From: Candidatus Bathyarchaeota archaeon | GTDB lineage: Archaea; Thermoproteota; Bathyarchaeia; Bathyarchaeales; Bathycorpusculaceae | DNA: 64,000 nt | Direction of reading: 5' to 3' | Assembly (NCBI GenBank): GCA_963775465.1 | Contig: CAVZIW010000003.1 | Coordinates: forward strand, 160,001-224,000 | Shown: piece by piece, positions 6,355 through 32,999 of the stretch | Numbering within the stretch: position 1 is the first letter of the stretch | Layout of the letters: each line of letters starts with the position of its first letter | Made by a program: the position numbers and the translations under genes | The notes under the pieces: model-generated | What the model was told of the DNA's origin: nothing | The model's input: only the letters and a program-made list of their open reading frames with translations | The model's database searches: none

Positions 6355-7737
6355 TTAGGAGAGTTTAATATGCATGGCTCTTAGAGCGTATGCAGCTGAT
6401 GTTTTCAATCCTGATCTGCCGTATGTTCCGCCTTTGAGCATCATTTTAAGAACATAGCGTGGTCGTAGGTAGAATTTTTGGTGCGCTTTGTACTTGATTT
6501 CTCGGAGTCTGTCCATGCTTAAGTACGGTGTTTCGAATGTTGGAGTGGCTGTATCGTATTTGTTGAAATCGGTCACCCGTAGCCAGTTGTTCTTTATTAC
6601 TTCCTCATACATGGGTGTTCCTGGGTACGGTGTTGCGATATAACAACCGATATCATCGGGGTTTAAGGAATTGATGAAGTTGATGGTTTCCCATGCAGTC
6701 TCTTCGGTTTCTTCCGGAAAGCCAATAACTGCACTAGCAATTGTCATCATGCCGGCTTTCTGAGCCATCTTAAACGCTTCACGGACCTGTTCACGGTTGA
6801 TTTTTTTGTGCATCTTATCCAAAATCTTCTCACTGCCCGATTCGACACCAAACCATATAGTTATGCAACCAGCGTCACGCATCTTCTCCAATAGTTCTCT
6901 GTCGACAGCATCGACCCGGGTTTCGCAGTCCCATTCCACGTCGAGTTTACGTGCCTTAATATCTGCACACATCTCCAACGTGTGATTACGATTAATCGTG
7001 AATGCATCATCATAAAAAGTGAATTGACTCTCTCCGTACTTACTATGTAGCATCTCCATATCATCTACTACTTTTTTGGGACTCCGTACCCGGTATCCTC
7101 TCCCGAACATGCGCACAGTGCTGCAAAAGTCACACCACTGGACACATCCGCGACTAGTAACGATGGGGAAAATGGTTTTACCCATGCGATGATAAGAATC
7201 AAGAGGTAACAGGTGATATGCTGGCGAAGGCAGTGAATCCAAATCATGCAAGAACGGTCTATCTTCGTTACGTTGAATACCATTTTTCGTTCGAACGGTT
7301 GTGCCTAAAACGTCTTCAAACCCCTTATTGGCTTGGATTCGATCAAGCAACTCAAGGAAAGTGAGTTCGCCTTCTTTGCGGACGATTAGATCGAAGGCTT
7401 TGGTTTCGTTAAGTGCGTTTTCATCCCAGAAGCTTACATGGCTTCCTCCGATCATATTGACGGCTTTTGGGTGAACTTCCCTTGCGACCTCCATGATGGT
7501 TTTTGCCGAGTTGTAAAGAAGAGTAGTTGAAGTTACGCCGACAACGTCTGAGGGAACCCCTGCGATTCGCTGGCGGAAGCTTTCGTAGTTGAGTCTTTCA
7601 CCTTGGCAATCGATGACTGTGACTAAATGACCAGCCTGTTCTGCTACTGCACCTAAATAAGCTAAACCTAATGGTATGAAAGGTGGATGGCTGTGGGCAT
7701 TTGGAGGATAAGGTGGATTAACCAGAGTAATTTTCAA
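6355..7737 (-). CDS. Cobalamin-dependent (class B) radical SAM protein #2, tandem paralog of #1
   Basis: Same motifs (SRGCVQWCDFCSTVRMFGRGYR). Aligns by eye with #1 along the full length. Confidence 0.92.
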   Translation of the reverse strand: MKITLVNPPYPPNAHSHPPFIPLGLAYLGAVAEQAGHLVTVIDCQGERLNYESFRQRIAGVPSDVVGVTSTTLLYNSAKTIMEVAREVHPKAVNMIGGSHVSFWDENALNETKAFDLIVRKEGELTFLELLDRIQANKGFEDVLGTTVRTKNGIQRNEDRPFLHDLDSLPSPAYHLLPLDSYHRMGKTIFPIVTSRGCVQWCDFCSTVRMFGRGYRVRSPKKVVDDMEMLHSKYGESQFTFYDDAFTINRNHTLEMCADIKARKLDVEWDCETRVDAVDRELLEKMRDAGCITIWFGVESGSEKILDKMHKKINREQVREAFKMAQKAGMMTIASAVIGFPEETEETAWETINFINSLNPDDIGCYIATPYPGTPMYEEVIKNNWLRVTDFNKYDTATPTFETPYLSMDRLREIKYKAHQKFYLRPRYVLKMMLKGGTYGRSGLKTSAAYALRAMHIKLS

Positions 7738-14700: not shown

Positions 14701-15879
14701 TTATGCTTGTTTAACTTTTTCAAGCTCTTTCTTGAGAATTTCAGCTTTGTCTGTTTTTTCCCATGGAAAGTCTCCGTCTTCTCTTCCAAAATGTCCAAAG
14801 ACGGCCGTTTTCTTGTAGATAGGTCTTAGAAGATCAAGTTGTTCGATTATTGCTTTGGGTCGCATGTCAAAGTGTTTCTTGACGAGTTCAAGGATTTGTT
14901 CGTCTGCTATTTTGCCTGTCTCGTTAGTGCAAATCAGAACTGAAATTGGTTGGGAAACACCAATGGCATAGCTTATTTGGATTTCGCATTGATCTGCTAA
15001 GCCTGAAGCCACAACGTTCTTGGCGATGTATCTTGCCATGTAGCAGCCTGAGCGGTCTACTTTTGATGGGTCTTTGCCGCTGAAGCAGCCACCACCATGG
15101 CTTCCGACTCCTCCGTAGGTGTCTACGATAATTTTCCTGCCTGTTAAACCTGAGTCAGCTAAGGTTCCGCCTATTACGAATCTTCCTGTGCCGTTAATGA
15201 CGTAGTTAACGTCTGGAGACAGTAGGTTGGCTGGGATGACATATTTGATTACTTTTTCCACGATTTCCTTCTTTAGGGTGTCATCGTTAACCGTTCCGTT
15301 GTTTTGCGCAGCAATAACAACAGTTTTAACGTATTTTGGTTTGCCGTCCTCGTATTCGATTGTGACCTGCGATTTACAGTCAGGTCTTAGGCAGGGTATG
15401 ATTTTTGTTTTTCTGCATTCAGCTAGACGTTTGACAAGTTTTTGTGCTAGCATTATTGGCAGGGGCATAAGTTCTTTGGTTTCGTTTGAAGCGTAACCGA
15501 AAACCATCCCTTGGTCTCCAGCACCTTGCTCGTGACCTTCGCATTCATTTACTCCCCTGGCAATGTCTGGAGACTGCTCCGTTAATGAAACTAGTATGCC
15601 GCAGGTTTCCCAGTCTAATCCGTCTTTAGCGTTGTCAAACCCGATTTCTTTGAGGGTTTGGCGAACAATCTTGGGAATATTAATGTAGGTACTTGTTGTG
15701 ATTTGACCTGTGACAACGACTGTTCCTTGCATGACTAGGGTTTCGCAGTCAACTCGAGCTTTTGTGTCCTTGCAAAATATTGCATCCAAAACGCTGTCTG
15801 AGATTTGGTCTGCAACTTTGTCTGGGTGACCTTCTCCGACTGACTCAGATGTGAACAAATATTTTCCGTTTGTTTTCAT
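14701..15879 (-). CDS. metK: S-adenosylmethionine synthetase, bacterial/eukaryotic type
   Basis: LFTSESVGEGHPDK, GAGDQG, GLTGRKIIVDTYGG, GGGCFSGKDPSKVDRS and FGHFGR. Start placed at ATG 15879 (MKTNGKYLF). Confidence 0.96.
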   Translation of the reverse strand: MKTNGKYLFTSESVGEGHPDKVADQISDSVLDAIFCKDTKARVDCETLVMQGTVVVTGQITTSTYINIPKIVRQTLKEIGFDNAKDGLDWETCGILVSLTEQSPDIARGVNECEGHEQGAGDQGMVFGYASNETKELMPLPIMLAQKLVKRLAECRKTKIIPCLRPDCKSQVTIEYEDGKPKYVKTVVIAAQNNGTVNDDTLKKEIVEKVIKYVIPANLLSPDVNYVINGTGRFVIGGTLADSGLTGRKIIVDTYGGVGSHGGGCFSGKDPSKVDRSGCYMARYIAKNVVASGLADQCEIQISYAIGVSQPISVLICTNETGKIADEQILELVKKHFDMRPKAIIEQLDLLRPIYKKTAVFGHFGREDGDFPWEKTDKAEILKKELEKVKQA

Positions 15880-16107
15880 AAGAATCTTTCCGATTTTGCC
15901 GTGTGATAGCATAGGTAACTCAGAGTTTTTCTTAAAAGGCTTTCTACAATGCAAGACGGATTGAATCAATTAATTGCGATGATGCAATAACAAGAACTGT
16001 CTTAACGATTACACTGCTCTCTAGTAAAGACGAAAAATTAAAAAAAAATCGTAGCTCTGAATGCATTTAGACCAATAGGAACATATTTACGCTATTCAAG
16101 TAGTCTT

Positions 16108-17957: not shown

Positions 17958-19061
17958 TTATTGTTTCCCCATTGGGTTTGCCCGCAGTTTTTCAAGATAT
18001 TTCGGGTCTTCTTGTAGAACTTTGGGTATGTAGTTGCATGCTGGATCTGACTCAAACAGGTCTCCTGTGTAGTATTCTGCGCGTGTTCTGCATCCGCCGC
18101 AGATTTCCCGATATTCGCAGACTCCGCATCTTCCTTTGAGGTTGTTTTTATCACGTAGTTTGAGATGGAACTCGCTTTTTTGCAAGTCTTCCCAAGCAGT
18201 GCGTAGTTTTGTATCTTTGACGTTGCCGATGCGATAGCCTTCGTGGAAGCCGCAGCTTCGGTAGTCGCCGTTTTCAGTTATTCCGATGTAGTTGCCGCCG
18301 ATGGTGCATCTGCCAAGGTAGCCTTCATTATACCAGTCCCAGAAGTCTACGGAGTTCTTTTGTCGGACAATGCGTGCGTAGAAGGGGGCGTAAACGTTGA
18401 CTTTGACTTTGCCGTAAAGTCTGCGCTGTATTTCGTATATTTCGTTGAATGCTACTTCATACTGATCAGCGGTTGGAGCTAGATCTTCCATATGTTCGCC
18501 TGCTCGACCTACTGGAACAAGGTTGTGGTATACGACTGAGCGGGCTTTGTAGTCTTCCGCTAACTTTGCGGTATGAGCCATCTGATGAATGTTATATTTA
18601 GTCATAGTTGTGACAAGACAGTCAAGTAATCCAACGCTGCTAAGTTTCTGCATTGCATTCATGGCTTTATCGTAGCCGCCTTTGCGTCTTATCTTATCAT
18701 TTGTGTCTCTTTCGCCATCAATGCTGATGGCTGTTTTAACGTTGTATTTTGTTAGTTTATTGAAGCGTTCTTCATCCCAAGCATAGCCGCTTGTGATTAA
18801 ACTAACATTAAGACCGTGCTCTTTTTCTGCATACTCAATAATCTCCCAGATGTCTGGACGAACCAGAGGCTCTCCGCCGCTGATTCCGAACCATTGTGAG
18901 CCGAAATCTGCCATTTCATCAACCATGTGTTTGGCTTGTTCAGTGGTTAATTCTTGGTCTTTAGCGTAATCTTTTATGTAACTGCAATAAGTGCAAGTGC
19001 CAACACAGTTACGTGTACACCGCCAAACAACCATAAACAACGGCGTTGTGGTTGGATTCAT
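17958..19061 (-). CDS. Radical SAM/SPASM protein, AhbC/AhbD/NirJ-like
   Basis: CVGTCTYC, SGGEPL, ISIDG and VPVGRA. SPASM cysteines in CTIGG...RSC...CGVC...CGGCR...DPAC. Confidence 0.85.
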   Translation of the reverse strand: MNPTTTPLFMVVWRCTRNCVGTCTYCSYIKDYAKDQELTTEQAKHMVDEMADFGSQWFGISGGEPLVRPDIWEIIEYAEKEHGLNVSLITSGYAWDEERFNKLTKYNVKTAISIDGERDTNDKIRRKGGYDKAMNAMQKLSSVGLLDCLVTTMTKYNIHQMAHTAKLAEDYKARSVVYHNLVPVGRAGEHMEDLAPTADQYEVAFNEIYEIQRRLYGKVKVNVYAPFYARIVRQKNSVDFWDWYNEGYLGRCTIGGNYIGITENGDYRSCGFHEGYRIGNVKDTKLRTAWEDLQKSEFHLKLRDKNNLKGRCGVCEYREICGGCRTRAEYYTGDLFESDPACNYIPKVLQEDPKYLEKLRANPMGKQ

Positions 19062-19187: not shown

Positions 19188-19643
19188 CTATTCCGTTTTT
19201 AGATTGCTTATCCGTTTACGCTGCAATAATCCTTCAACAGTGAAAACCGTCAGCGCCAAACTAGTGATAAGAGCCAAAAGCAGGAAAAAAATCTTGAACT
19301 CATAGGTTTCAATCGAAAAATGAACAAGTAAAATTGCAAGTTCAACAATTAAGATCGCTAAAAAAATCAACGAATAAAGCCACATCTTAGGCATCAAACG
19401 TTTTCCCAGCCAAATATGTCCTCTGATTCGGGCTTTCATTGCAACAATATACTCGCCGTACTCGTTTTTCTTTAAATATCCTGCGTCTTCGAGTTTTTGC
19501 AAGTGACGATATGCGACGCTGGGGCTGCTGAGGTTAACACTTTTCATGGCGTCTCGAGGCCCCACTGGGCTGTCCTTTTTTGAGGCGTACAAGTAAACGT
19601 TTAGTGTGATTCCTTGCAGTTCCTCTTTTTTGTCTCCAGTCAA
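19188..19643 (-). CDS. Membrane-anchored winged-helix transcriptional regulator (wHTH + 2 TM)
   Basis: VYLY...PVGPRD...LSSPSVAYRHLQKL..GY..KNEYGEY, then two hydrophobic helices. Divergent from the rnfD fusion. Confidence 0.78.
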   Translation of the reverse strand: MTGDKKEELQGITLNVYLYASKKDSPVGPRDAMKSVNLSSPSVAYRHLQKLEDAGYLKKNEYGEYIVAMKARIRGHIWLGKRLMPKMWLYSLIFLAILIVELAILLVHFSIETYEFKIFFLLLALITSLALTVFTVEGLLQRKRISNLKTE

Positions 19644-19883: not shown

Positions 19884-22055
19884 ATGTCTAAACCCCAAGA
19901 ATATTCATTGATGACTAAAGATAAACTAATGATTTACACTTTTGCTGCATTGGCGATCATCGCCGCAGTAACCACCATTCTATGGTGGGACGTTTATGCA
20001 GTAGACGCAGCAACCGGTAACCAAATTGGCTGGAATTACGGTTTAACTGTTCTATTAAACAGCCTTATTGCAGTAGGACTCGCAGTCGGTATCGACGTTT
20101 TGCTGGCAAAGACAGCCTCAGACAGCCCACTCAACCTATGGTCAGCAGCAGTTTTTGGCATGATTGTTTCATTATGCTACACTATCGGCGAACCCCAGAT
20201 GCGTGCAGGTGATGTACTTCCTTTGCTTGGCCCTGACTCATTCCTATACATAACACTGATTACTATAATCGGCATGGTTGTTTTTAAGAAACTCGCAGGA
20301 CTTAAAGGCAGAAAATACCTCAACCCCGCCGCAACAGCCAAACTTGTCGTTCTAAGCATTGTTGGATTGTTCACAGTTCTAATTCCAAAAGACCATTTAA
20401 ATTCAGGCTTACTGCAGGTACCTTCACTGGCTGGACCAATCAGCTATAACGTCGTAAACGGCAACGGTGCAGCAGGCTTTGGCTTTTATCTTGCTGGATG
20501 CTTCGGAAGTCCGAACATGCCAATTCCAACGACACCTACGCAAAGCGACATATTCAATTTACTGATTCTTGATAAATTCCACGGTTGGGCAGGCGGAGCT
20601 TCAAGCATCGCTGTCATAATCGTGGGTATTGCACTGTTTGCTTTAGCTCGCAGATATATCAAATGGAGAATTACCACTGTTTACTTTGTCACTGTTGCCC
20701 TAATGTCAGTTGTCCTCAACTTTGCATATCCAGGCGGCGACTTATTACTACGACTCGGCTTTGAAATCTTCATGGGCAGTTCAATATTCCTTGCGTTCTT
20801 TATGGCAACCGATCCAGCCACTACACCTATCACGCATATGGGCCAAATAATATTCGGAGCTGGCTTAGCCGTGCTTACGGTTTTAATTCAAACATACACG
20901 GGATTCTTCGGTGGTTCAATTCTAGCGTTAGTTATAATGAACTTAACCTGTCCAATCCTTGACAAGGTCGGCAAACAAAAACCCATAGAAGGCGGAAAAG
21001 AACCAAAACTACCCAAAGGCAAAGTCTTTCCAAAAGTCAAAACAACAGCTTGTATACGATGCGGCGCTTGCATGACAATTTGCTGCAACAAACTAAGTCC
21101 GATCCTAATCAAACAAGCCCGTGACAAAAACGACTTCACAGAGCTAATGAAACTTGACGCTGACTTCTGTGCTGGATGTATGGACTGCAATTACGTTTGT
21201 CCTGCAAGAATCGACCTTAGAAGCAATATTATAAATGTTCCACTTGGCGATGAAGAAATACAATCAATTGAGCAGTCATTCCTTAGTGGTGCAGCAGATG
21301 AAAACATAGGAATTTACCAAGACATGTTCTCGGCAAAAAGCAAGTATAGTGGCCAAGACGGTGGTGTCGTAACCGCATTACTGGTTTCAGGCATGGAAAA
21401 AGGCATGTTCGACTCTGCTATAGTGGTTAGACGTAGCAAAGGTTACCTTGCAGAAGCATTTGTAGCTAAAAGCGTTGATGACATAATAAAAGCAAGCGGA
21501 ACAAAATACATGCGTGTTAGAATAATGGCACAACTAGGCGAATTAATATCGAAAGGCAAACGCAAAATTGCAATCGTGGGTATGCCTTGTGTTATACGTG
21601 CAGCAAGAAGAGTTCAACAGCAAATGTTTACTGATTGCCCAGACCTAGAACTAACTATGATTGGTCTATTCTGCTATGAAGACTTCTACTATCGAATCCT
21701 CAAATCAGAAATACAAAGACTGCTAAACATTGACTTAGATCAAGCTGAGAAGACGCAAATTAACAAAGGCAAATTCATCGTGACCATTAACGGGCAAGAG
21801 AGCTCGGTGCCAGTCAAAGATTTGAATGCAGCAGTGGAAAAAGGTTGCTTACGTTGTCCTGACTTTGCAGCGATGTATGCAGATATTTCTGTCGGTTCAG
21901 TAGGAAGCGAACAAGGCAAATCAACAGTAATTGTGCGCTCAGATGTCGGTGCAAAACTAGCACAAGGTCTTGATTTGAGTAAAGGCGCTGTCAAGAAAGA
22001 AGAAATCGTTAAATTAGCAATAAACAAGAAGAAACGTGCTCAAGAACACCAGTAA
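19884..22055 (+). CDS. Fusion of an RnfD/NqrB-like membrane domain, an RnfC-type 2x[4Fe-4S] domain and an FrhB/FpoF F420-binding domain
   Basis: RnfD-like: LNPAA, FFMATDPATTP. Fe-S: CIRCGACMTICC, CAGCMDCNYVCP. FrhB-like: QDGGVVTALL, SGTKY, VGMPC, GLFC, CLRCPDF, ADISVGSVG. AAGGAG RBS upstream. Confidence 0.85.
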   Translation: MSKPQEYSLMTKDKLMIYTFAALAIIAAVTTILWWDVYAVDAATGNQIGWNYGLTVLLNSLIAVGLAVGIDVLLAKTASDSPLNLWSAAVFGMIVSLCYTIGEPQMRAGDVLPLLGPDSFLYITLITIIGMVVFKKLAGLKGRKYLNPAATAKLVVLSIVGLFTVLIPKDHLNSGLLQVPSLAGPISYNVVNGNGAAGFGFYLAGCFGSPNMPIPTTPTQSDIFNLLILDKFHGWAGGASSIAVIIVGIALFALARRYIKWRITTVYFVTVALMSVVLNFAYPGGDLLLRLGFEIFMGSSIFLAFFMATDPATTPITHMGQIIFGAGLAVLTVLIQTYTGFFGGSILALVIMNLTCPILDKVGKQKPIEGGKEPKLPKGKVFPKVKTTACIRCGACMTICCNKLSPILIKQARDKNDFTELMKLDADFCAGCMDCNYVCPARIDLRSNIINVPLGDEEIQSIEQSFLSGAADENIGIYQDMFSAKSKYSGQDGGVVTALLVSGMEKGMFDSAIVVRRSKGYLAEAFVAKSVDDIIKASGTKYMRVRIMAQLGELISKGKRKIAIVGMPCVIRAARRVQQQMFTDCPDLELTMIGLFCYEDFYYRILKSEIQRLLNIDLDQAEKTQINKGKFIVTINGQESSVPVKDLNAAVEKGCLRCPDFAAMYADISVGSVGSEQGKSTVIVRSDVGAKLAQGLDLSKGAVKKEEIVKLAINKKKRAQEHQ

Positions 22056-22228
22056 ACACAAGAAAATTTCCCTTTTCCTTTTCTTTGTTTTTTATATTTC
22101 TTATAGAATCATCCATTTTTGCTATCCTGGTTTTGCCATGGGTCTTGGAAAATAGACTCTTTGCAGAGCGCTTGTAAGCATTAAGCTTATTAACACGCCC
22201 CAACGTAAAATAGTCCAAAGGGATAAAA

Positions 22229-22885
22229 ATGGAACAGGAAAAATTCAGAATAGTTGACATACTCTATGGCATTGTCATACCAATAATTCTAGTGCTCTTG
22301 ATTTATGTTCTCGCTGTCTATGTGAACCCAAGTGGACAAAACCATGTTCTCGGCGTTGCAGGTACAACCGGAACGATCGCTGTTATCCTATCGCAAGGCT
22401 TTGCTCAAATGATTATTCTAGGTGTTCCCTTAGTTCTTGGTTTGCTTTGGAACAAGTGGGCGGGTGGAGCAGCAGGCTTCATCATGGGCGGTCTTTATTA
22501 TGTTGCTCAGGCAGGACTCTACACAGGATACTTTGCAGGTTCAAATCCACCATACAACTACTTTGGCGATGTTAGCTTGCTTTTCTGGCTTGTAAACGGT
22601 GTCATCATCGGTTATATGGCGGGAGCACTCACTAACGGATCAACAAACTTCAAACGTATGCTAGGTGCAGGCTTAACCGCTGCAATATCAACTGCTCTTA
22701 TTCAGGCGTACATGAACTATACTGTCTCGCTTGACCCTTCGCGTGGAATGGCTCAGGGCTTATGGGCAACTGATCTAGGACAGGCTATATTGATTAATTT
22801 CGTTCCGAGCATTGCGTTAGGTGTGATTGTACCAATACTTGCAAAAGTAATGACTTGGTATGGTCTTCAACCGACAAGGCACTAA
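22229..22885 (+). CDS. ECF S-component-like membrane protein, copy 1
   Basis: About 6 TM helices in 218 aa. LGLLWNKWAGGAAGFIMG resembles S-component helices 2-3. Confidence 0.55.
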   Translation: MEQEKFRIVDILYGIVIPIILVLLIYVLAVYVNPSGQNHVLGVAGTTGTIAVILSQGFAQMIILGVPLVLGLLWNKWAGGAAGFIMGGLYYVAQAGLYTGYFAGSNPPYNYFGDVSLLFWLVNGVIIGYMAGALTNGSTNFKRMLGAGLTAAISTALIQAYMNYTVSLDPSRGMAQGLWATDLGQAILINFVPSIALGVIVPILAKVMTWYGLQPTRH

Positions 22886-24039
22886 TCTACATCTTCTTTC
22901 TTTTTTTGAGTAGGAATTATTTAAAAATTCTTATAGACTTTGGTTTTTCAAGATTAGCCTTTTAAGTAAAAAAGACATTGTTGTTCCTATTACTCCAAGT
23001 TTCTCCAACTATTGATTAATGTTTTTAACTTCCTTTGATGTATGTTTGCTGCTGGTTGTGTTTTTGCATGTTTCAAATCCTATTATTTCATTGATCGCAT
23101 GCCTTGTAAATTATCTCTTGTTTAAAAGTTCTTAATTGCTTGCTTGGATATTTTTTATCCTCGAAGGTGGTGTAAAATTATCGATTCTGCTTAAGCCATA
23201 ATTCTGTATTTCATTTAACCTACGCCTATAGTCGCCATTTCTTTTTTCCCACGCTTCCTCTATTCTTTTGATATACGGGTAAGAATCCTTTCGAAATTCA
23301 GTTGATTTATACAACATACTTAAACAGTAACGGTTAAGCTTATTACCGACTTGTGCAGAAAATAATCTTAAAGGGATAAAGAATGGAACCAGAAAGATTC
23401 AAATTAATAGACATATTATACGGCATAGTAATACCGTTCCTTCTCGCATTCTTGATTTATGTTCTCGCTGTCTATGTGAACCCAAGTGGACAAAACCATG
23501 TTCTCGGCGTTGCAGGTACAACCGGAACGATCGCTGTTATCCTATCGCAAGGCTTTGCTCAAATGATTATTCTAGGTGTTCCCTTAGTTCTTGGTTTGCT
23601 TTGGAACAAGTGGGCGGGTGGAGCAGCAGGCTTCATCATGGGCGGTCTTTATTATGTTGCTCAGGCAGGACTCTACACAGGATACTTTGCAGGTTCAAAT
23701 CCACCATACAACTACTTTGGCGATGTTAGCTTGCTTTTCTGGCTTGTAAACGGTGTCATCATCGGTTATATGGCGGGAGCACTCACTAACGGATCAACAA
23801 ACTTCAAACGTATGCTAATGGCAGGTTTAACAGCCGCAATAATAACAGCTATCATCCAGGCGTACATGAACTATACTGTCTCGCTTGACCCTTCGCGTGG
23901 AATGGCTCAGGGCTTATGGGCAACTGATCTAGGACAGGCTATATTGATTAATTTCGTTCCGAGCATTGCGTTAGGTGTGATTGTACCAATACTTGCAAAA
24001 GTAATGACTTGGTATGGTCTTCAACCGACAAGGCACTAA
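22296..24039 (+). repeat. Direct repeat with offset 1154: 22296-22663 = 23450-23817 and 22703-22885 = 23857-24039
   Basis: Nucleotide-identical tracts by direct comparison, separated by a 39-nt divergent patch. Confidence 0.92.
23383..24039 (+). CDS. ECF S-component-like membrane protein, copy 2
   Basis: Identical to copy 1 except the first ~23 codons and a 13-codon internal patch. Same AAAGGGATAAA leader. Confidence 0.55.
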   Translation: MEPERFKLIDILYGIVIPFLLAFLIYVLAVYVNPSGQNHVLGVAGTTGTIAVILSQGFAQMIILGVPLVLGLLWNKWAGGAAGFIMGGLYYVAQAGLYTGYFAGSNPPYNYFGDVSLLFWLVNGVIIGYMAGALTNGSTNFKRMLMAGLTAAIITAIIQAYMNYTVSLDPSRGMAQGLWATDLGQAILINFVPSIALGVIVPILAKVMTWYGLQPTRH

Positions 24040-24132: not shown

Positions 24133-25431
24133 TTAAGTTTTAGCTTGGTTAGGAGCAAACTCCCAAGCGATATTTCCCTTCCATAGCTCACCGTTCTTAG
24201 TTAAGCGAACTTCGTTATCATCAATTTCTATTAGTCCTTGGTCCTTTAGTTTTTGCAACTGTTTCGGAAAGACCTTTTCGGGAGTGGTTTGGAATTTTTC
24301 CATAAACTCTTTTTTGCTTACTGGTAACCGCAAATATAGTCGTGTCATGGATCGGCGCATCATGTCTTCAGTTGAGGATTCAGAGAGTCTGCAAATTGGT
24401 AATTTGCCCTCTTTTACCGTTGCCATGTAATCATTGATGTTTTCTAGGTTTGAGTAAGAGAATTTTTGCAAGTAACCCATGAAGCATCCTGCGCCTGTGG
24501 TTAGGATGCCTCCCCATGGCCAACCGTTAAGGCAGTTTTCACGCATATGCCACTCCACTCTGCTGTAACGGTCGTGACCGACAGCTTTGTAACCTGCTTC
24601 TGTGAGCATCTTGTGCGCTGTTAGGAACATTTGTTTCTCGAACTCCGCGTTACCCTGTGGAGGAGACTGGCCATTTTTTATCATCTTTTCAAGAATAGTT
24701 CCTGGATCAACATGTAGCGAGTAAGCATCAACTTCTGCATCTAACTCAATTGTTTTCGTTAGTGTGTCTATCCAGCTTTCCATGGTTTGTCCGGGTAGGT
24801 TATACATAAGGTCGACACATACGACCATTCCTAGTTTTCGTGCATGTTTGATAGCTGCCTCAACGTCAGCTGCGCTATCGGGGAGGCATAGGGCTTTGCG
24901 TAATTTGTCGTCAAAAGTTTGGGCACCCATGTCCATTTGGTAGACACCATAGTCTGCTAATTTGTCGATTTTTTTAAGTGCAAGCGTCTTTGAGGATCCG
25001 GTTACTTTGATAAAGTATTCTTTACTTGTGTTAAAGTTGGCTTTGCAGAAATCGATTAAGTCGATAATCTGCTCAGCGCTTAATACGCTTGGGGTTCCAC
25101 CTCCCAAAACGATTTCGTCAAAATAGCTGGTTTTGACGTATTTGGTTTTAGCGTACATTGAAAGCTCTTTTTTAAGAAGGTCAAGGTAAGGTTCAAGTTG
25201 TACTTTACTTGAGGCTGTAGTTGGAAAATAACAGAAAGCACATCGGCTATCGCAAACAGAAATCCAGGGCTGCAACTCCATTAGTCTGCCTGAGGTGTTC
25301 TCAGTCTCCAAAAAATTCAAGAATGCATCGTATGTTTCAGGCTTTATGCCTGGGTAATCCCTGTAGGTGTACGGAGGCCAGTTTTCTCTGGATTCATATG
25401 CTTCTGCTTTTGATTGGGAAGCTATTGTCAA
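24133..25431 (-). CDS. HemN-like (class C type) radical SAM protein
   Basis: CDSRCAFCYF, GGGTPS, MGAQTFDD, DLMYNLPGQT, GAG and a HemN C-terminal VRLTKNG. Confidence 0.85.
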   Translation of the reverse strand: MTIASQSKAEAYESRENWPPYTYRDYPGIKPETYDAFLNFLETENTSGRLMELQPWISVCDSRCAFCYFPTTASSKVQLEPYLDLLKKELSMYAKTKYVKTSYFDEIVLGGGTPSVLSAEQIIDLIDFCKANFNTSKEYFIKVTGSSKTLALKKIDKLADYGVYQMDMGAQTFDDKLRKALCLPDSAADVEAAIKHARKLGMVVCVDLMYNLPGQTMESWIDTLTKTIELDAEVDAYSLHVDPGTILEKMIKNGQSPPQGNAEFEKQMFLTAHKMLTEAGYKAVGHDRYSRVEWHMRENCLNGWPWGGILTTGAGCFMGYLQKFSYSNLENINDYMATVKEGKLPICRLSESSTEDMMRRSMTRLYLRLPVSKKEFMEKFQTTPEKVFPKQLQKLKDQGLIEIDDNEVRLTKNGELWKGNIAWEFAPNQAKT

Positions 25432-25544: not shown

Positions 25545-26948
25545 TTAGACACGAGCTTTTGCTCGCCAAAGCATATAGTTCGCGGCGGTTCGCGTCATTA
25601 TCTTGCTATATAAGTTGCCTTTGATGTAACCTTTTACTGCTTGACGCATTACGTAACGTGGTGAGTAAAATTTGTTGTAGAATGTTCTTCTCATTGCCGC
25701 TATTTCTTTGGCTGGGAGAGCTGGATCTTCGAAGATGGGGTTCATAGTATTGTACAGTTCCCAATTATCTGACATCTTCCATCCATAGCTCTTAACTAAA
25801 TCACGAAGATAGGTGCCTGGATATGGCGTTGCATGGCAAAGCCAAACGTCGTCGGGTTCTAGTTTGCGAGCAAAATCTAGTGTTTCTTGCAATGATTCTT
25901 TGGTTTCACCGGGATATCCTAAAATGACTGAGACGGTTACGAACATGCCTGCTTCTTTAGCCCATTTAATTGCGTTCCAACACTGCTCGTTCGTGACTCC
26001 TTTTTTCAGGACAGCCCGCATTCGTTGGCAACCAGATTCGATTCCGAACATAGTCTCATTGCAGTGGGCTTTCGCCATTTTTGCTAGGACTTCTTTTGTT
26101 ACCACGTCTGCACGGGTTCCGCAACCCCAAGGCAAATTGATTTTTCTTTCAATTATGCCATCACATATTTCAGTGGCACGTCTCTTGTCGAAAGTTAAAG
26201 TGTCATCTTGGAAAGCTATCCCTTCAGCTCCATATTCATCTCTTAGCCACTCAAGCTCGTCCAGAACGTTTTTTGAGCTTCTCATTCGGAATCTCTGGCC
26301 AAACATTTGTGAGGCGACACAGAAGGAACATTGAAAAGGGCAACCTCTGCTCGTTATAATTGGTAGAAGAGTCTTACCTGTGATTCTGTATTTTTCCATG
26401 GGAACGTATTTGTAAGCTGGACGTGGAAGAGAATCAAGGTCTTGAATAAAGGGCCTATTGACTGTTTGAATTATTTGGTTTTCTTTTCGAAAACTTATAC
26501 CTTTGACGTCACCTAGTTTTTGCATGTTTGGCGCTTGTTTGGCGAGTTCAACGATTGTTTCTTCCCCTTCTCCTCTAACGATTATGTCGACTGCTTTTTC
26601 GTCAATAAGAATTTCTCTATCTGCAAAAGTCGCGTGAGGTCCTCCCATTAAGACTTTGGCGTCTGGGCAGACTTCCTTGGCTACCTGCGCCGATTTAAGA
26701 GCTGAAACAATGGTGGGTGTCATAGATCCTATGCCTACTATAGTAGGATCATAAGCTGCAAGTTCAGCTTTGAGTTTTTCATGGTCTATTTGGCACACTG
26801 GGCAATCGATTATTTTGACTTCAAAATCATTCTGCTCTAAAACAGCCCCCATGTAAGCTAAGCCGAGAGGTGGAAAAAGCGGGTGATGAGCAACATTCTC
26901 TAAGAGTGGTGTAGTTACCAAAGCAACTTTGGTTTTTTTAGTGCTCAT
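25545..26948 (-). CDS. Cobalamin-dependent (class B) radical SAM protein #3
   Basis: PPLGLAYM, GGPHATF, GEGE, SRGCPFQCSFC, GIESG and GYPGET. Confidence 0.92.
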   Translation of the reverse strand: MSTKKTKVALVTTPLLENVAHHPLFPPLGLAYMGAVLEQNDFEVKIIDCPVCQIDHEKLKAELAAYDPTIVGIGSMTPTIVSALKSAQVAKEVCPDAKVLMGGPHATFADREILIDEKAVDIIVRGEGEETIVELAKQAPNMQKLGDVKGISFRKENQIIQTVNRPFIQDLDSLPRPAYKYVPMEKYRITGKTLLPIITSRGCPFQCSFCVASQMFGQRFRMRSSKNVLDELEWLRDEYGAEGIAFQDDTLTFDKRRATEICDGIIERKINLPWGCGTRADVVTKEVLAKMAKAHCNETMFGIESGCQRMRAVLKKGVTNEQCWNAIKWAKEAGMFVTVSVILGYPGETKESLQETLDFARKLEPDDVWLCHATPYPGTYLRDLVKSYGWKMSDNWELYNTMNPIFEDPALPAKEIAAMRRTFYNKFYSPRYVMRQAVKGYIKGNLYSKIMTRTAANYMLWRAKARV

Positions 26949-26964: not shown

Positions 26965-28056
26965 TCACTCTTTCCGTAGGCTCTTGGGAATGTAAATGCA
27001 TGCGGGGTCTGATTCAGTTATGTCGCCTGTGTAGGCGTAAGCACGGTTTCTGCATCCACCGCAAATTTCTCGGTATTCGCAAACTCCGCATTTACCTTTG
27101 AGGACGCTGCGGTCTTGGAATTTGTTGTAGTATTTTGAAGCTTTGATTTCTTCCCAAGCAGTACTTAGGGTTTTGTTCCGTATGTTTCCCAGCATCATGG
27201 GTTCAGAAGGTTGTAAATCCGTATAAAAGCAAGGAATTAGATCACCGTTTTCGGTTACACTTAGATATCCGCCAAACGCGAAATAGGTGCATTTACCGTG
27301 GAATTCTTTTTCGTACCATTCCTTGAATTCTTCTTCCGGCAGTCTTTGACATACAACCCGTGCGAAATGGGGGCAATGTACATGAACCTCAAATTTACCC
27401 TTATACTTTGTTGTTATATCCCAGATGTGATTTAGAGTCCACTCATACTGTTCGGGCGTTGGAGTTAGTTCCATAGTTTCTTTGGCTCGTCCACTTGGAA
27501 CCAGATGATTGTACCAGACAAAATTTGCATGGTACTTGTCAGCTAACTCCGCGACGTGGTCAAGGTACTTGTAATTAATAGTTGTTATCGCACAGGCTAA
27601 ACCGTTTAAGATTTTGCCAGCAGATAGTTTTTCGATGGCAGCAAGGGCTTTCTTGTAGGACCCTACTCCACGGAGTTGATCGTTTATTTCTTCTGGTCCA
27701 TCGATGCTGACTGAAGTCCAGACTTGGTTCTTAACCAAGTTATCGTAGATTGATCCATCAACAAAAACGCCGTTGGTCAAGAGACAGACATTTAATCCTT
27801 TGCTTTTGGCATAAGTGACGATTTCGAAAATGTCTGGGCGCGTTAAGGGTTCGCCGCCTTTAATGCCAAACCATCTGACACCAAACTTTTTAACTTCATC
27901 CACCAGATGAAAGGCTTCTTGGGTGGTCATTTCTCTTTCAGCGTGTTTGCCTGTAGCATCTACGTTACAGTATTTGCATCTGGCGTTGCACGCGCCTGTG
28001 GCCCTCCACGAGGTCATAAGTAATGGACCTTTATGTTCTGTCAAAACAAAATACAC
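26965..28056 (-). CDS. Radical SAM/SPASM protein, AhbC/AhbD/NirJ-like, paralog of 17958..19061
   Basis: CNARCKYC, GGEPL, SIDG, YNHLVPSGRA and CGVCEYREICGGCR...ESDPAC. Confidence 0.85.
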   Translation of the reverse strand: MYFVLTEHKGPLLMTSWRATGACNARCKYCNVDATGKHAEREMTTQEAFHLVDEVKKFGVRWFGIKGGEPLTRPDIFEIVTYAKSKGLNVCLLTNGVFVDGSIYDNLVKNQVWTSVSIDGPEEINDQLRGVGSYKKALAAIEKLSAGKILNGLACAITTINYKYLDHVAELADKYHANFVWYNHLVPSGRAKETMELTPTPEQYEWTLNHIWDITTKYKGKFEVHVHCPHFARVVCQRLPEEEFKEWYEKEFHGKCTYFAFGGYLSVTENGDLIPCFYTDLQPSEPMMLGNIRNKTLSTAWEEIKASKYYNKFQDRSVLKGKCGVCEYREICGGCRNRAYAYTGDITESDPACIYIPKSLRKE

Positions 28057-28262: not shown

Positions 28263-30797
28263 ATGGAAACGAAAATACATGTCACAATTATTCTGGTACT
28301 CCTTCTTGTTTCTTCAGTTTCAGCAGGTCTTGCTGTACAATCAAATCAAACCATTGTGGATGCACAGACAAGCTCTAATAGCAATTTGCTGCAGTATGAA
28401 TGGCCTCAATTTATGGGAGACTCCTCTTTTACAAGATTCAACCCTGGTCCTGCCCCAGACAAACCCGATATTCTATGGAAAGCCAATGTCACTGGCATAC
28501 AAACTTACCTTTCAGCCTTTGGCGGTATGATATTTGTTGGGACAAACACTTCTGTGGCGGCTTTAGACGGCGAAACGGGAAGTATAGTTTGGGAAACGAC
28601 TATTCCGATGCCTCGTTCTTGGCCAATCGCCTACAAAATTGATGGCTCACACTTGGTTGTAGAGAATAGTTGTCTGGACCCAAAAACAGGCAAAATACTT
28701 TGGACTAGTTCCGCTTTTAACGAGGATACAGGTATTTTCAGCGCCAATGTTTACAGCCCAGAAGAACGAATGTTTTTCATTAAAGTTGACTCATTCATTC
28801 AAGGTTGGAGTTTTGCTGATCCGTCCAATCCTCCTGTTATGGTTTGGCAGACTTATGTTCCAGGCGGTGGCAAAACTGGAATCGGAACAACTTATGGTGA
28901 AGGATTAGTTTTCGTAGGTTCTTTTATGAACCAGCAGATGGCACTTGATGCTAAAACAGGTGCAGTGGTCTGGACAACTTTAACTAAGGGTCCGATGATT
29001 TTTGAAGGCGCCTATTCTGATGGCAGATTCATAAGAGGTGGAACAGACGATAACACCCTTTACTGTTTTAATGCAACTGATGGAAGAATTCTATGGACTT
29101 ACTCTCCCGGAACATCGGACGGATATTTTACAACGGGACCGGCAATTGCATACGGGATGGTTTATGAACTCAATAAAGACGGTAATCTCTACGCAGTAGA
29201 CTTAGCAACGGGTAAATTGGTGTGGACGTATCAGGGTCCAGGTACACTTCTTTGGCCCGGGTATCCCACGATTGCAGATGGGAAAGTATACGCCACAACA
29301 GGTGAGATTGCCCAGTATGGTGGTCAGGTTGGCACTTCCGAGTTTGTGTGCTTAAACGCTTACACTGGAGCAGTAAAATGGAAGTTACCCATCGAAGCGT
29401 TGGCACCTAGAGAATCCGTTGCTGTTGCTTACGGTCATCTCTATCTTATTCCAGGAACTGTCACTGATGCTGTTGACTCCATTTCAGGAAATGAATACGC
29501 CAATTTCGACCAAGTTTGGGCAATAGGAGAACCAGAAATTGTAACCAGCAACTGGCCTATGTGGCGTTCTGATCCTTCTCATTCTTCAACTGCACAAGTT
29601 GGTCCTTCCAACTTGTCTTTGTCATGGAATTTCACTACCCACGGCTCCGTTATATCTTCGCCCAGCGTAGTAAACAATATAGTTTACGTTGGTTCTCAAG
29701 ACAAAAACATCTATGCTCTAAGTGCTTTTAGCGGAAACCTAATCTGGAAATTTGCAACACAAGATGCCCAAGTTTCTTCTCCCGCGATCAGCAATGCCAG
29801 ACTCTACACCGGAGGTGATGATGGCTACGTTTACTGCCTTGACGCCTATACTGGTACCCTATATTGGAGAACTTTTGTTGACGGTAACTTACCCTACACT
29901 TACGGGTCATTTGTCCTCAAATCTTCTCCAGCAGTCTTTGAAGGCAGGGTATATGTTGGTTCATTGGACGGCAATATGTATGCACTTGACGCGAACACAG
30001 GCCAGATTGACTGGAAATATGAAACAGGTGGACACATTCTATCTTCACCAGCAATTGATGATGGAGGCGTCTATTTTACTTCAGAAGAGCCCAATACAGG
30101 GGTCCTCTACAAATTAGACGCCATCAGTGGGGCTTTAAGTTGGAAGCAAGATTTGCCCTTTGAATATCAATTTACGGGCGGAACTGAGATGATTGGTTCG
30201 CCTTCTGTTGCTGCTGGTATGGTGTTTGCATCTGCGGACTTGAGAACCTACTTTGGTATAGATGCGAACACTGGCGACATCATCTGGACTTTCCGAGACC
30301 CTGACGCAATGGAATTCATTGTTTCCTCCCCAATCTACGTTAATGGTCAACTCTACGTAATCGACAAGTTCAGCATAACTTCTCTTAACGCAAAAACCGG
30401 ACAGAGCAATTGGAGCTTTTTCACTGGTGATGAACTCTATGCTTCTCCTTCGTATGCGGATGGCAAAATTTACATGATGACCAGTCAGCGTCATATCTTC
30501 GTTCTTGATGCTAAAAACAACGGATCAAAGCTTGATAGCTATGAGATGCCTTCGGGCAGCTGGTCTTCACCCACTATCGCTAACGAAAGATTATACATCG
30601 GCAACCACGACTGGAATGTCTATTGTTTTGCGAATGAAATATCAGTAACTGAAAACTCCCAGCCGACAGATAGTATGCCGTATCAACCTTCACTTGCTGT
30701 AGTTGCCGTGTTGATCATCGCAATTGTATTATTGGCTGCAATAAGCGGTACCTACTTTTTCCGAAAAATAAAAGCCCAAAAAAACCAACAATCATAA
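28263..30797 (+). CDS. Secreted, C-terminally anchored PQQ-like/BamB-like beta-propeller repeat protein (two modules)
   Basis: Signal peptide and repeated YA/CLDA.TG...W blades. Two modules start with WPQFMGD and WPMWRSD. C-terminal TM plus basic tail. Confidence 0.85.
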   Translation: METKIHVTIILVLLLVSSVSAGLAVQSNQTIVDAQTSSNSNLLQYEWPQFMGDSSFTRFNPGPAPDKPDILWKANVTGIQTYLSAFGGMIFVGTNTSVAALDGETGSIVWETTIPMPRSWPIAYKIDGSHLVVENSCLDPKTGKILWTSSAFNEDTGIFSANVYSPEERMFFIKVDSFIQGWSFADPSNPPVMVWQTYVPGGGKTGIGTTYGEGLVFVGSFMNQQMALDAKTGAVVWTTLTKGPMIFEGAYSDGRFIRGGTDDNTLYCFNATDGRILWTYSPGTSDGYFTTGPAIAYGMVYELNKDGNLYAVDLATGKLVWTYQGPGTLLWPGYPTIADGKVYATTGEIAQYGGQVGTSEFVCLNAYTGAVKWKLPIEALAPRESVAVAYGHLYLIPGTVTDAVDSISGNEYANFDQVWAIGEPEIVTSNWPMWRSDPSHSSTAQVGPSNLSLSWNFTTHGSVISSPSVVNNIVYVGSQDKNIYALSAFSGNLIWKFATQDAQVSSPAISNARLYTGGDDGYVYCLDAYTGTLYWRTFVDGNLPYTYGSFVLKSSPAVFEGRVYVGSLDGNMYALDANTGQIDWKYETGGHILSSPAIDDGGVYFTSEEPNTGVLYKLDAISGALSWKQDLPFEYQFTGGTEMIGSPSVAAGMVFASADLRTYFGIDANTGDIIWTFRDPDAMEFIVSSPIYVNGQLYVIDKFSITSLNAKTGQSNWSFFTGDELYASPSYADGKIYMMTSQRHIFVLDAKNNGSKLDSYEMPSGSWSSPTIANERLYIGNHDWNVYCFANEISVTENSQPTDSMPYQPSLAVVAVLIIAIVLLAAISGTYFFRKIKAQKNQQS

Positions 30798-31526: not shown

Positions 31527-32999
31527 CTAATCCTGATTCTGGTTAATGGGTGCACTGTGCCCTCCAGCCTTCTTTTTTGGATGATAGAGCCTGCGAACTG
31601 CCCATTTTGCAACGCGATTATTAGACACTATATGGTTTAATGTCATGCGCGCCATGACTTGGCTGTAAAAGTCGCCTTTTAGCTTCTTTTTTAGGTAGAA
31701 ACTTGGAGAGAGGTATCTGTCGTAGAATTCTTTTTTGGTTTCTTCAAGTTTTTCCAGCGGCAAAAGTTTGTTGTTAAAAACCTGTGTTTGTTCATGATAC
31801 TGACTCCAATCAGAGGCTAATTCTAAGCCTAGACTTTTTGCATAGTCGTAGAGTTCTGTGCCTGGGTATGGAACTGCTTCACACATGTAGACGTAGTCGG
31901 GTTTAGTTTTGTAGATAAAATCTATTGTTTCCTGCAATTGTTGAGATGTCTCCCCAGGGTAACCGATAACCAGGGATATAGCAACTGAGATGCCTGCTTC
32001 TTTGGTTAATTTTATTGCTCGGGCGTTTTGTTCAACGGTTGTGCCTTTGCGCATTAGGTTAAGTATTTGTTGGTTTCCTGATTCAACTCCGAAATGAATC
32101 AGTTGGCAGCATGTATCGTGCAGTTTTGTTAAGAGTTCCTTGGAGACTTTATCAACTCGAGTTCGGCAATCCCAGGGTAAATCAAGCTTGCGTTTCTGCA
32201 TTTCATCGCAAATTGCGACTGCTCTGGGTACGTCGAAGGTGAAGGTGTCATCATAAAATGCAAAGGCGCCTGCTCCAAACTCGTCACGTAGCCATTCTAA
32301 CTCATCGACTACATTGGCTGGACTGCGAGCACGGAAGCCTCTTCCACACATTTTGTACGCTGCACAGAACGCGCAGCTAAAAGGGCAACCTCTGCTGGTG
32401 ATGATTGGGAGATAAGTTTTGTTTAAAATTTTGTATCTGCCTACGTCAAAATGATTGTGAGCTGGGCGGGGAAGAGCATCAATGTCTTGTATGAAGGGGC
32501 GGTCGGGGTTGCGGAAGACTTGACCGTTCTTTTGGAATGTTATACCTGCAACTTGGCTGAGTTTTTTTTGGTTTCCCTCGCTAATTAGTTGAGCAAGCTC
32601 TAGCATGGTCATTTCGCCTTCGCCGCGGGCAACTATATCAACATACTGACTTTCCGTAAAAGTCTCTTGATCTCTGACTGTTACATGCGGTCCGCCAATC
32701 ATGGTGACTGCGTTTGGCAGGGAAGATTTTGCGGCTTTCAAAATATCCAAGGCTGGATTGTAAGTTAATGTGGCGGATGTTACGCCGATTATGTCGGGGT
32801 TGAGGCTTCGAAATTTGTCTTCCAAATCCTTTTGGGTTGGGTGAGTAGTTTGGCAATCAACCACGTCTACGGTGTATCCATTCTTTTCCAGAACCGCTGT
32901 TAAGTAACTAATACCTAAAGGCAGAAAGATAGCTTGCGGTGCCTCAATTGGGTAAGGTGGATTTACGAGTGCTACGTGAGCTTTCACTTGGTTCCCCAA
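31527..32999 (-). CDS. Cobalamin-dependent (class B) radical SAM protein #4
   Basis: LVNPP, PLGISYL, GGPHVT, SRGCPFSCAFC, GVESG and GYPGET. Confidence 0.92.
   Translation of the reverse strand: MGNQVKAHVALVNPPYPIEAPQAIFLPLGISYLTAVLEKNGYTVDVVDCQTTHPTQKDLEDKFRSLNPDIIGVTSATLTYNPALDILKAAKSSLPNAVTMIGGPHVTVRDQETFTESQYVDIVARGEGEMTMLELAQLISEGNQKKLSQVAGITFQKNGQVFRNPDRPFIQDIDALPRPAHNHFDVGRYKILNKTYLPIITSRGCPFSCAFCAAYKMCGRGFRARSPANVVDELEWLRDEFGAGAFAFYDDTFTFDVPRAVAICDEMQKRKLDLPWDCRTRVDKVSKELLTKLHDTCCQLIHFGVESGNQQILNLMRKGTTVEQNARAIKLTKEAGISVAISLVIGYPGETSQQLQETIDFIYKTKPDYVYMCEAVPYPGTELYDYAKSLGLELASDWSQYHEQTQVFNNKLLPLEKLEETKKEFYDRYLSPSFYLKKKLKGDFYSQVMARMTLNHIVSNNRVAKWAVRRLYHPKKKAGGHSAPINQNQD

Follow-up and report, generated by a model that had tools for sequence, protein, structure and literature searches.

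The window analyzed in this study, a 64,000-nucleotide stretch of DNA from a Candidatus Bathyarchaeota archaeon (assembly GCA_963775465.1, contig CAVZIW010000003.1, positions 160,001 to 224,000), contains at 19884..22055 on the plus strand a gene that joins three electron-transfer modules in a single polypeptide. The reading frame starts with ATG, is uninterrupted, and encodes 723 amino acids (aa). The N-terminal part of the protein is a membrane domain resembling RnfD and NqrB (residues 43–368; 20010..20987, plus strand). A lysine-rich linker leads from this domain to a segment of the RnfC type with two [4Fe-4S] clusters (residues 383–448; 21030..21227, plus strand), which is followed by a flavin and [4Fe-4S] domain of the FrhB/FpoF type that is presumed to react with coenzyme F420 (residues ~469–710; 21288..22013, plus strand).

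Pfam assigned residues 43–368 to NQR2_RnfD_RnfE (PF03116; E = 3.3e-35, 122 bits against a cut-off of 27.7), residues ~385–447 to 4Fe-4S dicluster families, and the C-terminal head to FrhB_FdhB_N (PF04422; residues 483–549, E = 1.2e-14, 54.6 bits) and FrhB_FdhB_C (PF04432; residues 560–701, E = 1.5e-34, 119.5 bits). Among the NCBIfam models, rnfC matched residues 383–448 with its positions 358–423, and every match of the head and of the RnfD domain fell below its curated cut-off (PRK09325 (FrhB), 183.6 vs. 269 bits; FpoF, 150.8 vs. 475; frhB, 148.1 vs. 331.5; the rnfD model TIGR01946, 84.5 vs. 207.05). The dicluster segment contains two CxxCxxCxxxC motifs (Cys 390/393/396/400 and 429/432/435/439), and the FrhB-cluster cysteines of the fusion (C569, C597, C655, and C658) align to cysteines of Fsr and FrhB. 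An alignment of 80 rows lists all of the 12 cluster cysteines but one, C432, as nearly invariant. An AlphaFold2 model of the whole protein was compact and confident, with a predicted local distance difference test score (pLDDT) of 91.2 and a predicted template modeling score of 0.88. Pfam, NCBIfam, and the cysteine motifs agree on the architecture that the original prediction, made from the DNA letters alone, had read from the frame.

Of 8000 candidates scored in a homolog search, 968 proteins matched at E ≤ 0.001. The combination of PF03116, PF04422, and PF04432 was present in all of the best 120, and 116 of these are 692–759 aa long. Few of the best 120 have named hosts, namely Bathyarchaeota metagenome-assembled genomes (MAGs) and one ‘Hodarchaeota’ MAG. 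Since a library clustered at 50% identity held a single full-length representative among its best 150 matches (P0028, 716 aa), the three-part form is one fairly tight family. The RnfD/Fer4 and Fer4/FrhB junctions are bridged by contigs of three DNA runs from different studies (X6 record 20, 20906–21334; X1 record 3, 21033–22325; X10 record 10, 21054–21320) and of one metatranscriptome library (X8 record 28, 21149–21641). The metagenome runs containing this stretch are from wetland, soil, salt marsh, and sediment. The contigs of the RNA library cover the fusion gene and its downstream neighbor c2 (see below), and their depth drops to zero on the upstream side of 19822 and in the stretch that separates the two genes; as these data are contigs, the gaps were not used to place transcript ends. 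The occurrence of the same architecture in 120 of the best 120 relatives and in 44 of 93 RnfD-like genes, together with the independent DNA and RNA contigs, rules out an assembly chimera.

Cofactor sites and missing Rnf partners

A profile of the family’s RnfD domains matched the solved RnfD chains 9eri_D (9.7e-32), 7zc6_D (6.2e-29), and 8ahx_D (5.2e-25), and also NqrB (9.2e-16). In Foldseek comparisons the domain reached a TM(target) of 0.78 with 9eri_D and of 0.67–0.78 across RnfD structures, so that it shows both the NQR2_RnfD_RnfE family and its ten-helix fold. The threonine that carries the covalent flavin mononucleotide (FMN) is embedded in TTAT, TGAT, or SGAT in the solved chains; in the family, this position lies in an unconserved loop and its register varies between alignments. 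Despite the shifting register, the loss of the FMN-threonine motif is settled by a direct motif search, which found [S/T]GA[T/S] nowhere in the 723-aa protein, as the original prediction had stated. The motif occurred in one of 102 RnfD-domain rows of the family and in one of the 120 best-listed homologs. In contrast to this outward site, the residues of the inward flavin site are retained: N147 and D310 are invariant (alignment A1) and align to N123 and D249 of Acetobacterium woodii RnfD, while the motifs NP[AV]A and M[AS]TDP were found in 102 and 97 of the 102 RnfD-domain rows, respectively. According to the available part of PMC11889175, N123 and D249 of A. woodii RnfD hydrogen-bond riboflavin in a pocket that is open to the cytoplasm, and mutants in these residues are inactive. 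Judging from these alignments, the inward flavin pocket appears to have been kept and the outward covalent-FMN site to have been lost. In the A. woodii structure, as described in the same part of that paper, both RnfD termini reach into RnfC, which fits a C-terminal fusion to the clusters of RnfC.

The 80 residues around both clusters of the fusion share 43–49% identity (56–67 bits) with the C-termini of three RnfC proteins from sister genomes, compared with 27–36% identity (30–35 bits) for the ferredoxin domains of the Fer4-FrhB paralogs included in the comparison. These scores indicate that the dicluster segment is of RnfC descent and not of the FpoF type. Acquisition of Fer4 and FrhB as one unit from an FpoF-like paralog was considered and is rejected for the dicluster part on the same pairwise scores. 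The FrhB part may still derive from an FpoF-like paralog, the closest outgroup being the Fer2-Fer4-FrhB paralog P0126. That an F420 module takes the place of the NADH module of RnfC, as had been proposed, is corroborated by this similarity to RnfC C-termini and by a locus within the same genus that retains a true RnfC (see below).

The best sequence matches of the head were Fsr (7np8_A, 2.7e-38), a component of an F420-reducing carbon monoxide dehydrogenase (CODH; 8riu_B, 3.7e-35), and FrhB (3.5e-33), while the match to the chlorophyll enzyme HCAR was far weaker (2.3e-5). Its fold agreed with FrhB chains at TM(target) values of 0.81–0.82 in Foldseek. From these nearest relatives we infer that F420 is the substrate of the head. 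The genome encodes CofD, CofE, and Fno (NpdG) above curated cut-offs (177.5 vs. 149.8 bits for Fno) as well as three full-length luciferase-like (LLM) genes, with a fourth, short match that contains an internal stop.

Several further observations concern F420-related genes elsewhere in this and in sister genomes. About 45 kb upstream of the fusion and beyond the window, cofE, a luciferase-like oxidoreductase, and fno/npdG lie within 7 kb of one another (G000:C3:128432-134786). In three sister genomes a stand-alone frhB gene is located at most ~3 kb from cofE. Sister genomes also encode a Fer2-Fer4-FrhB protein of ~477 aa, 48–51% identical to the C-terminal half of the fusion and absent from the window’s genome, which adjoins a NuoF-like (647 aa) and a NuoE-like (178 aa) protein (L053:6959-10892, L054, and L055). 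This set may form an NAD(P)H-F420 or bifurcating complex.

The original prediction had noted that no rnfA, rnfB, rnfE, or rnfG gene lies in the window. This extends to the whole genome, which comprises 2.42 Mb on 15 contigs and is 92% complete, so that the absences reported here are not proven. Within this assembly, we detected no second PF03116 gene, no member of the RnfA/E family (Rnf-Nqr, PF02508), no FMN_bind domain of the RnfG/NqrC type, and no ApbE flavin transferase. No gene exceeded the rnfB cut-off (23 weak ferredoxin-type matches, best 44.1 vs. 68.7 bits), and none exceeded that of rnfC, for which the top match was the dicluster segment of the fusion itself (44.1 vs. 246 bits; also by tblastn). 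As far as the 92% complete genome shows, a canonical Rnf complex is not present, and a search for such an operon elsewhere in the genome, which could have used the fusion as an ordinary subunit, returned none. The incompleteness of the genome is the only point in favor of regarding the protein as an assembly chimera or as a plain RnfD subunit of a canonical Rnf encoded elsewhere. Against it stand the bridged junctions, the lack of further rnf genes, and the finding that the PF03116 genes of the class are always of this kind (14 of 151 genomes). The canonical-subunit explanation is rejected on these grounds, and we regard the two together as having a practically negligible probability.

Exchange of the head domain

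Relatives of the fusion were collected by searching 301 genomes of the phylum and by inspecting the flanks at the loci. PF03116 occurred in 14 of 151 sampled genomes of the class, in five of 79 genera, and in two families. The locus takes three forms. In four genomes of the window’s own genus, an RnfD-only gene is overlapped by a true RnfC (TIGR01945, 411 bits against a cut-off of 246) with RnfC_N, the Nuo51 FMN domain, and two clusters. In eight genomes and at locus L010, the RnfD domain is followed by the dicluster segment only (~440–470 aa), and the third form is the FrhB fusion. In genome G077, three separate places carry the fusion, an RnfD-Fer4 gene, and a gene with RnfD alone. A more distant relative from the representative library, P0238 (1131 aa), combines RnfD and the dicluster with a molybdopterin oxidoreductase (Molybdop_Fe4S4, Molybdopterin, and Molydop_binding). 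Since one and the same locus can bear RnfC, Fer4 alone, or FrhB, and since a molybdopterin-fused relative exists, the head is interchangeable. The comparison suggests a constant core of membrane domain and dicluster to which RnfC (NADH), FrhB (F420), a molybdopterin enzyme, or no head at all can be attached. On two metagenome contigs, an RnfD-only copy was additionally found in tandem directly before an RnfD-Fer4 gene (L139:7-2333 and L140:412-3073).

In a FastTree phylogeny of 102 RnfD domains, fused and Fer4-only forms were interleaved, and the well-supported branches force at least 12 state changes for the fused label. The 45 fused FrhB domains formed one clade (Shimodaira-Hasegawa-like support 99) apart from 17 other FrhB proteins, and the inner topology of this clade conflicts with the RnfD tree, for example in the placement of L073. 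Both trees were quick reconstructions calculated with neither bootstraps nor an approximately unbiased test. In the simplest reading, one old fusion was followed by many losses and by some recombinational exchange. The proposal that the protein is a minimal module consequently needs qualification: the gene does stand without the other Rnf parts, but its FrhB head is one of at least four heads or states and has been lost or exchanged many times.

Gene neighborhood

The fusion gene is followed on the plus strand by c2 (22229..22885), a conserved downstream neighbor that encodes a predicted six-helix membrane protein of 218 aa without cysteine and without a Pfam or NCBIfam family. A tandem duplicate with 94% identity is located at 23383..24039 (plus strand), and the same tandem duplication occurs in the close relative L008. 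Upstream, on the minus strand, lie c8 (19188..19643), a 151-aa protein with a hydrophobic C-terminal half and no family, which is a divergent neighbor in some loci, and c1 (17958..19061), a divergent neighbor of the radical S-adenosylmethionine (SAM)/SPASM type whose best models, AhbD and NirJ, were matched below cut-off. Three more radical SAM genes follow downstream on the minus strand: the HemN-like c3 (24133..25431; best model ChuW/HutW, below cut-off), the B12-binding c4 (25545..26948; best models BchE and HpnJ, below cut-off), and a second radical SAM/SPASM gene that is a paralog of c1 (26965..28056).

This arrangement was compared across 93 RnfD-like genes at 97 loci, 17 from genomes and 80 from metagenomes. 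Among the 34 loci with 3 kb or more of sequence on each flank, 32 had a radical SAM gene no farther than 4 kb away. c2 lay downstream in the same orientation in 48 of 66 loci, c1 divergently upstream in 38 of 63, and c3 within 3 kb in 30 of 51. These counts overstate independence because many of the loci are closely related. In the fusion clade with less than 59% identity, c1 was adjacent in none of 18 loci; there, B12 radical SAM genes flank the fusion, and c2 followed downstream in 10 of 15. The link to radical SAM and corrinoid enzymes that the original prediction had suggested stood as a conserved neighborhood and found no support beyond it; the electron acceptor is probably tied to these genes.

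The structure model of c2 was poor (pLDDT 62.7), and a Foldseek search with this poor model against the PDB gave no match at E ≤ 0.001. Similarity of c2 to S-components of energy-coupling factor transporters was considered, and no fold is assigned: S-components came up only in Foldseek rows at noise level (E ~0.7–1.1), and the Atlas feature score of 0.86 for an S-component cluster is no more than a lead. Complex prediction for the RnfD domain and c2 gave a score of 0.00, which counts neither for nor against binding. A 200-aa paralog of c2 is encoded elsewhere in the genome (G000:C12:71163-72880, corresponding to L148:2163-3880), directly after a cysteine-rich Methyltransf_31 methyltransferase, which we take to be ArsM-like, and a gene of 83 aa that resembles AbrB/MazE; the opposite strand carries a B12 radical SAM gene and a gene for a pyridine-nucleotide disulfide oxidoreductase. 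Judged by the neighbors of this paralog, c2 is associated with methylating enzymes and not specifically with RnfD.

The window as a whole is a radical SAM island, in which tblastn detected seven or eight B12-binding radical SAM paralogs and three of the SPASM type. The island includes 4606-5958, 6382-7734, 25548-26948, 31626-32984, 34714-36070, 38065-39357, and 40673-41914, and also 26968-28026 and 48784-49830. A second copy of c8 is situated beside one of the paralogs (37522-37950). A bacterial-type S-adenosylmethionine synthetase (MetK, with three Pfam domains) is encoded 4 kb from the cluster at 14701-15969 on the minus strand and is syntenic in relatives. Between radical SAM genes, at 28263-30797 on the plus strand, lies the gene of an 844-aa secreted protein with a pyrroloquinoline quinone-like beta-propeller and a C-terminal membrane anchor.

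Possible function and significance

The fusion was compared with three groups of known systems. With the RnfD-RnfC pair of A. woodii (9eri), Clostridium tetanomorphum (7zc6), and Azotobacter vinelandii (8ahx), it has the membrane fold and the riboflavin-ligand residues in common, and its RnfC-type dicluster sits where RnfC meets RnfD. It differs from this pair in being one chain, in lacking the FMN-threonine motif, RnfA, RnfB, RnfE, RnfG, and ApbE, and in having FrhB in place of the NADH/FMN module of RnfC. In FpoF/FqoF, the N-terminal half of Fsr (7np8), and the F420-reducing components of CODH and Fwd enzymes (8riu_B and 8rja_E), a ferredoxin dicluster precedes FrhB as it does in the fusion, and it is to these modules that residues ~385–720 are most similar in sequence and fold. 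In contrast to them, the dicluster of the fusion is of RnfC descent, its matches to the FpoF and FrhB equivalogs stay below cut-off, and its F420 module is covalently tied to an RnfD domain instead of docking on a soluble enzyme or on one that resembles complex I. Among described concepts, the bacterial Nqr/Rnf-like two-subunit complex comes closest. As presented in the available part of PMC11334425, such complexes also contain an NqrB/RnfD-like domain in which the flavinylation threonine is missing and to which a cytosolic input domain is fused, and like the fusion they are reduced Rnf/Nqr derivatives proposed to act as one-way conduits. According to the same text, they use an NAD-binding PF00175 domain and an ApbE-dependent, flavinylated NqrC/RnfG-like partner, whereas the fusion has no PF00175 match but a Fer4 and FrhB head, and neither FMN_bind nor ApbE was found in its genome. 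Its candidate partner is the unrelated six-helix c2 and its host is an archaeon. No description of an RnfD-FrhB fusion was found in open-access papers and bioRxiv. As far as our searches reach, it represents an undescribed and widespread reduced Rnf/Nqr derivative joined to an FpoF-like F420 module.

The interpretation we favor, and to which we give about an even chance, is that the protein is a single-chain, membrane-anchored, non-pumping electron-transfer module linked to F420, which descends from the RnfD-RnfC pair of Rnf and is probably tied to radical SAM/B12 genes. The cytoplasmic FrhB head would exchange hydride with F420 at its flavin, and single electrons would pass from the [4Fe-4S] cluster of FrhB through the two RnfC-type [4Fe-4S] clusters to a non-covalent, riboflavin-type flavin in the cytoplasm-facing pocket of the RnfD-like domain. 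The acceptor or donor at the membrane end would most likely be found among the neighboring radical SAM enzymes and c2, so that the module would donate electrons to radical SAM/B12 reactions at the membrane or withdraw them from there. Alternatively, a membrane-bound substrate of the radical SAM/B12 enzymes could be the acceptor, and c2 might act as a partner. The domains and the cofactor-ligand residues are observed; that the membrane domain binds a flavin, which way the electrons flow, and what accepts them are inferred. The absence of the outward covalent FMN and of RnfA, RnfE, and RnfG speaks for a conduit rather than an ion pump. In a bolder and rather doubtful extension of this proposal, the fusion would belong to an unrecognized class of flavinylation-free, Rnf-derived modules in Bathyarchaeia with plug-in heads for F420, NADH, or a molybdopterin substrate, which together with c2 would serve specifically to feed electrons into a radical SAM/B12 pathway associated with the membrane that modifies, for example, lipids or another membrane-bound molecule.

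Several observations weigh against the interpretation as an F420-linked module for radical SAM chemistry. F420H2 and NADH alone are not reducing enough for radical SAM clusters. The F420 specificity is deduced from nearest relatives because the head stays below all curated cut-offs, and the many headless RnfD-Fer4 forms imply that F420 is not essential to the function of the core. No cofG was found above cut-off in the genome (cofH and cofC were not searched). Across the 15 genomes of the group, cofE was present in all and cofD in ten; cofD was not found in the fusion-bearing genome G294, the other negatives being G162 and three RnfD-Fer4 genomes of one genus, and the biosynthesis genes cofD and cofE did not discriminate between fused and other forms. 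The neighborhood is partly inherited among related genomes and therefore does not constitute independent evidence. Moreover, in one subclade of fusions, which includes several nearly identical contigs, none of the cluster genes occurs in the vicinity (L093, L095, L097, L098, L112–L114, L117, and L119), so that the fusion can stand without the radical SAM set. Its neighbors there are a 2-oxoacid:ferredoxin oxidoreductase or unrelated genes. At L097:4116-10085, and likewise in L095 and L098, the four subunits of this oxidoreductase (gamma, delta, alpha, and beta) and a 180-aa protein without family precede the fusion on the same strand. Kinship of c2 with the 184-aa and 180-aa neighbors in this subclade was examined and rejected (hhalign probabilities 0.05 and 0.24).

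The cluster-free subclade and its ferredoxin oxidoreductase neighborhood keep two alternatives alive, each of which we consider unlikely and less probable than the extension outlined above. In one of them, the same machine would run in reverse and make F420H2, with electrons that either enter from reduced ferredoxin directly at the exposed clusters or come from a donor in the membrane, and would thereby serve F420-dependent enzymes in an organism without Frh hydrogenase. FrhB-type modules are reversible, as a comparison of Frh and Fpo illustrates, and the FrhB domain of the fusion is the only one found in its genome. In one lineage (L095, L097, and L098), a complete 2-oxoacid:ferredoxin oxidoreductase precedes the fusion, and according to the available part of PMC7886697, FrhB occurs in many Bathyarchaeia that lack hydrogenase subunits, and it is unclear where their F420H2 comes from. 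Yet F420 reduction with NADPH is already possible through the Fno of this genome, a ferredoxin:F420 reaction requires no membrane domain, and the oxidoreductase neighborhood is limited to a single lineage of near-identical contigs. The other alternative, about equally improbable, is a stand-alone F420H2:quinone oxidoreductase, or one acting on another lipophilic carrier, that copies the last steps of the Na+-translocating NADH:quinone oxidoreductase (NQR), from riboflavin in NqrB to quinone; the radical SAM neighbors would then make or modify the carrier or be unrelated. NQR reduces quinone at NqrB, and the HemN-like (class C) radical SAM methyltransferases are a known type of quinone methylase. 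The conserved riboflavin-ligand residues and the lost outward FMN site speak for this proposal, as do the fusions that lack the radical SAM cluster. Respiratory input enzymes typically combine one membrane anchor with swappable dehydrogenase heads, and quinone reduction by NQR takes place on the cytosolic side (PMC11334425, available part). The genomic context argues in the opposite direction: the MqnA/MqnD family of the futalosine route (PF02621) was not found in the genome (the search did not extend to men and ubi genes), the ubiquinone pathway described for Bathyarchaeota MAGs in the available part of PMC9534799 is only partial, and the complex-I-like operon of the genome may be a hydrogenase rather than a quinone enzyme. 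This operon (G000:C1:86806-96748, L149) has eleven genes, including those for NuoB, for a NuoCD fusion that matches NiFe-hydrogenase, and for NuoH, I, J, L, M, and N; it lacks FpoF and NuoEFG and resembles the ‘Hfo’ hydrogenase proposed for Bathyarchaeia in the available text of PMC7886697.

The suggestion that the fusion translocates ions was not supported. A minimal, single-polypeptide, F420-driven pump could be argued from its descent from an ion-pumping complex, from a fold that distantly resembles urea and ammonium channels (Foldseek E of 5e-3 and weaker), and from earlier NQR work, cited in PMC11889175, that proposed an ion path in NqrB. However, in the A. woodii structure, as far as described in the available part of that paper, the Na+ path is carried by RnfA and RnfE, which hold the Na+ sites and a [2Fe-2S] cluster, RnfD is an electron carrier only, no ion path was found in it, and the proposed NqrB-type residues gave no phenotype. 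RnfA/E and RnfG were not found in the 92% complete genome, and as the outward FMN is missing there is no transmembrane electron path to couple to. We therefore consider a pump very unlikely, far more so than either of the two alternatives above. Relative to all of these, the conduit tied to the radical SAM/B12 genes remains the interpretation that we prefer.

In anoxic sediments, wetlands, and soils, Bathyarchaeia rank with the most abundant archaea, and to our knowledge no member has been obtained in pure culture. Their genome surveys, in the parts available to us, left two kinds of observation unexplained: hits in Bathyarchaeota MAGs to RnfB, RnfC, and RnfD only, which amount to a ‘partial Rnf’ (PMC9534799), and orphan FrhB genes in Bathyarchaeia that have no Rnf and an unclear source of F420H2 (PMC7886697). 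Our results indicate that such hits are not fragments of an Rnf pump but a family of their own, with a membrane core and exchangeable heads, encoded beside radical SAM/B12 enzymes. Because these genomes seem to contain no Rnf, maps of their energy metabolism need rereading. The family offers a concrete candidate for connecting the F420, NADH, or ferredoxin pools to the membrane. It also amounts to an Rnf dissected by nature, in which RnfD and RnfC form a unit that lacks the half responsible for ion pumping; this may be useful for testing models of Rnf and NQR. If the proposed supply of electrons to radical SAM enzymes proves true, this would be the first dedicated membrane reductase system for archaeal radical SAM enzymes.

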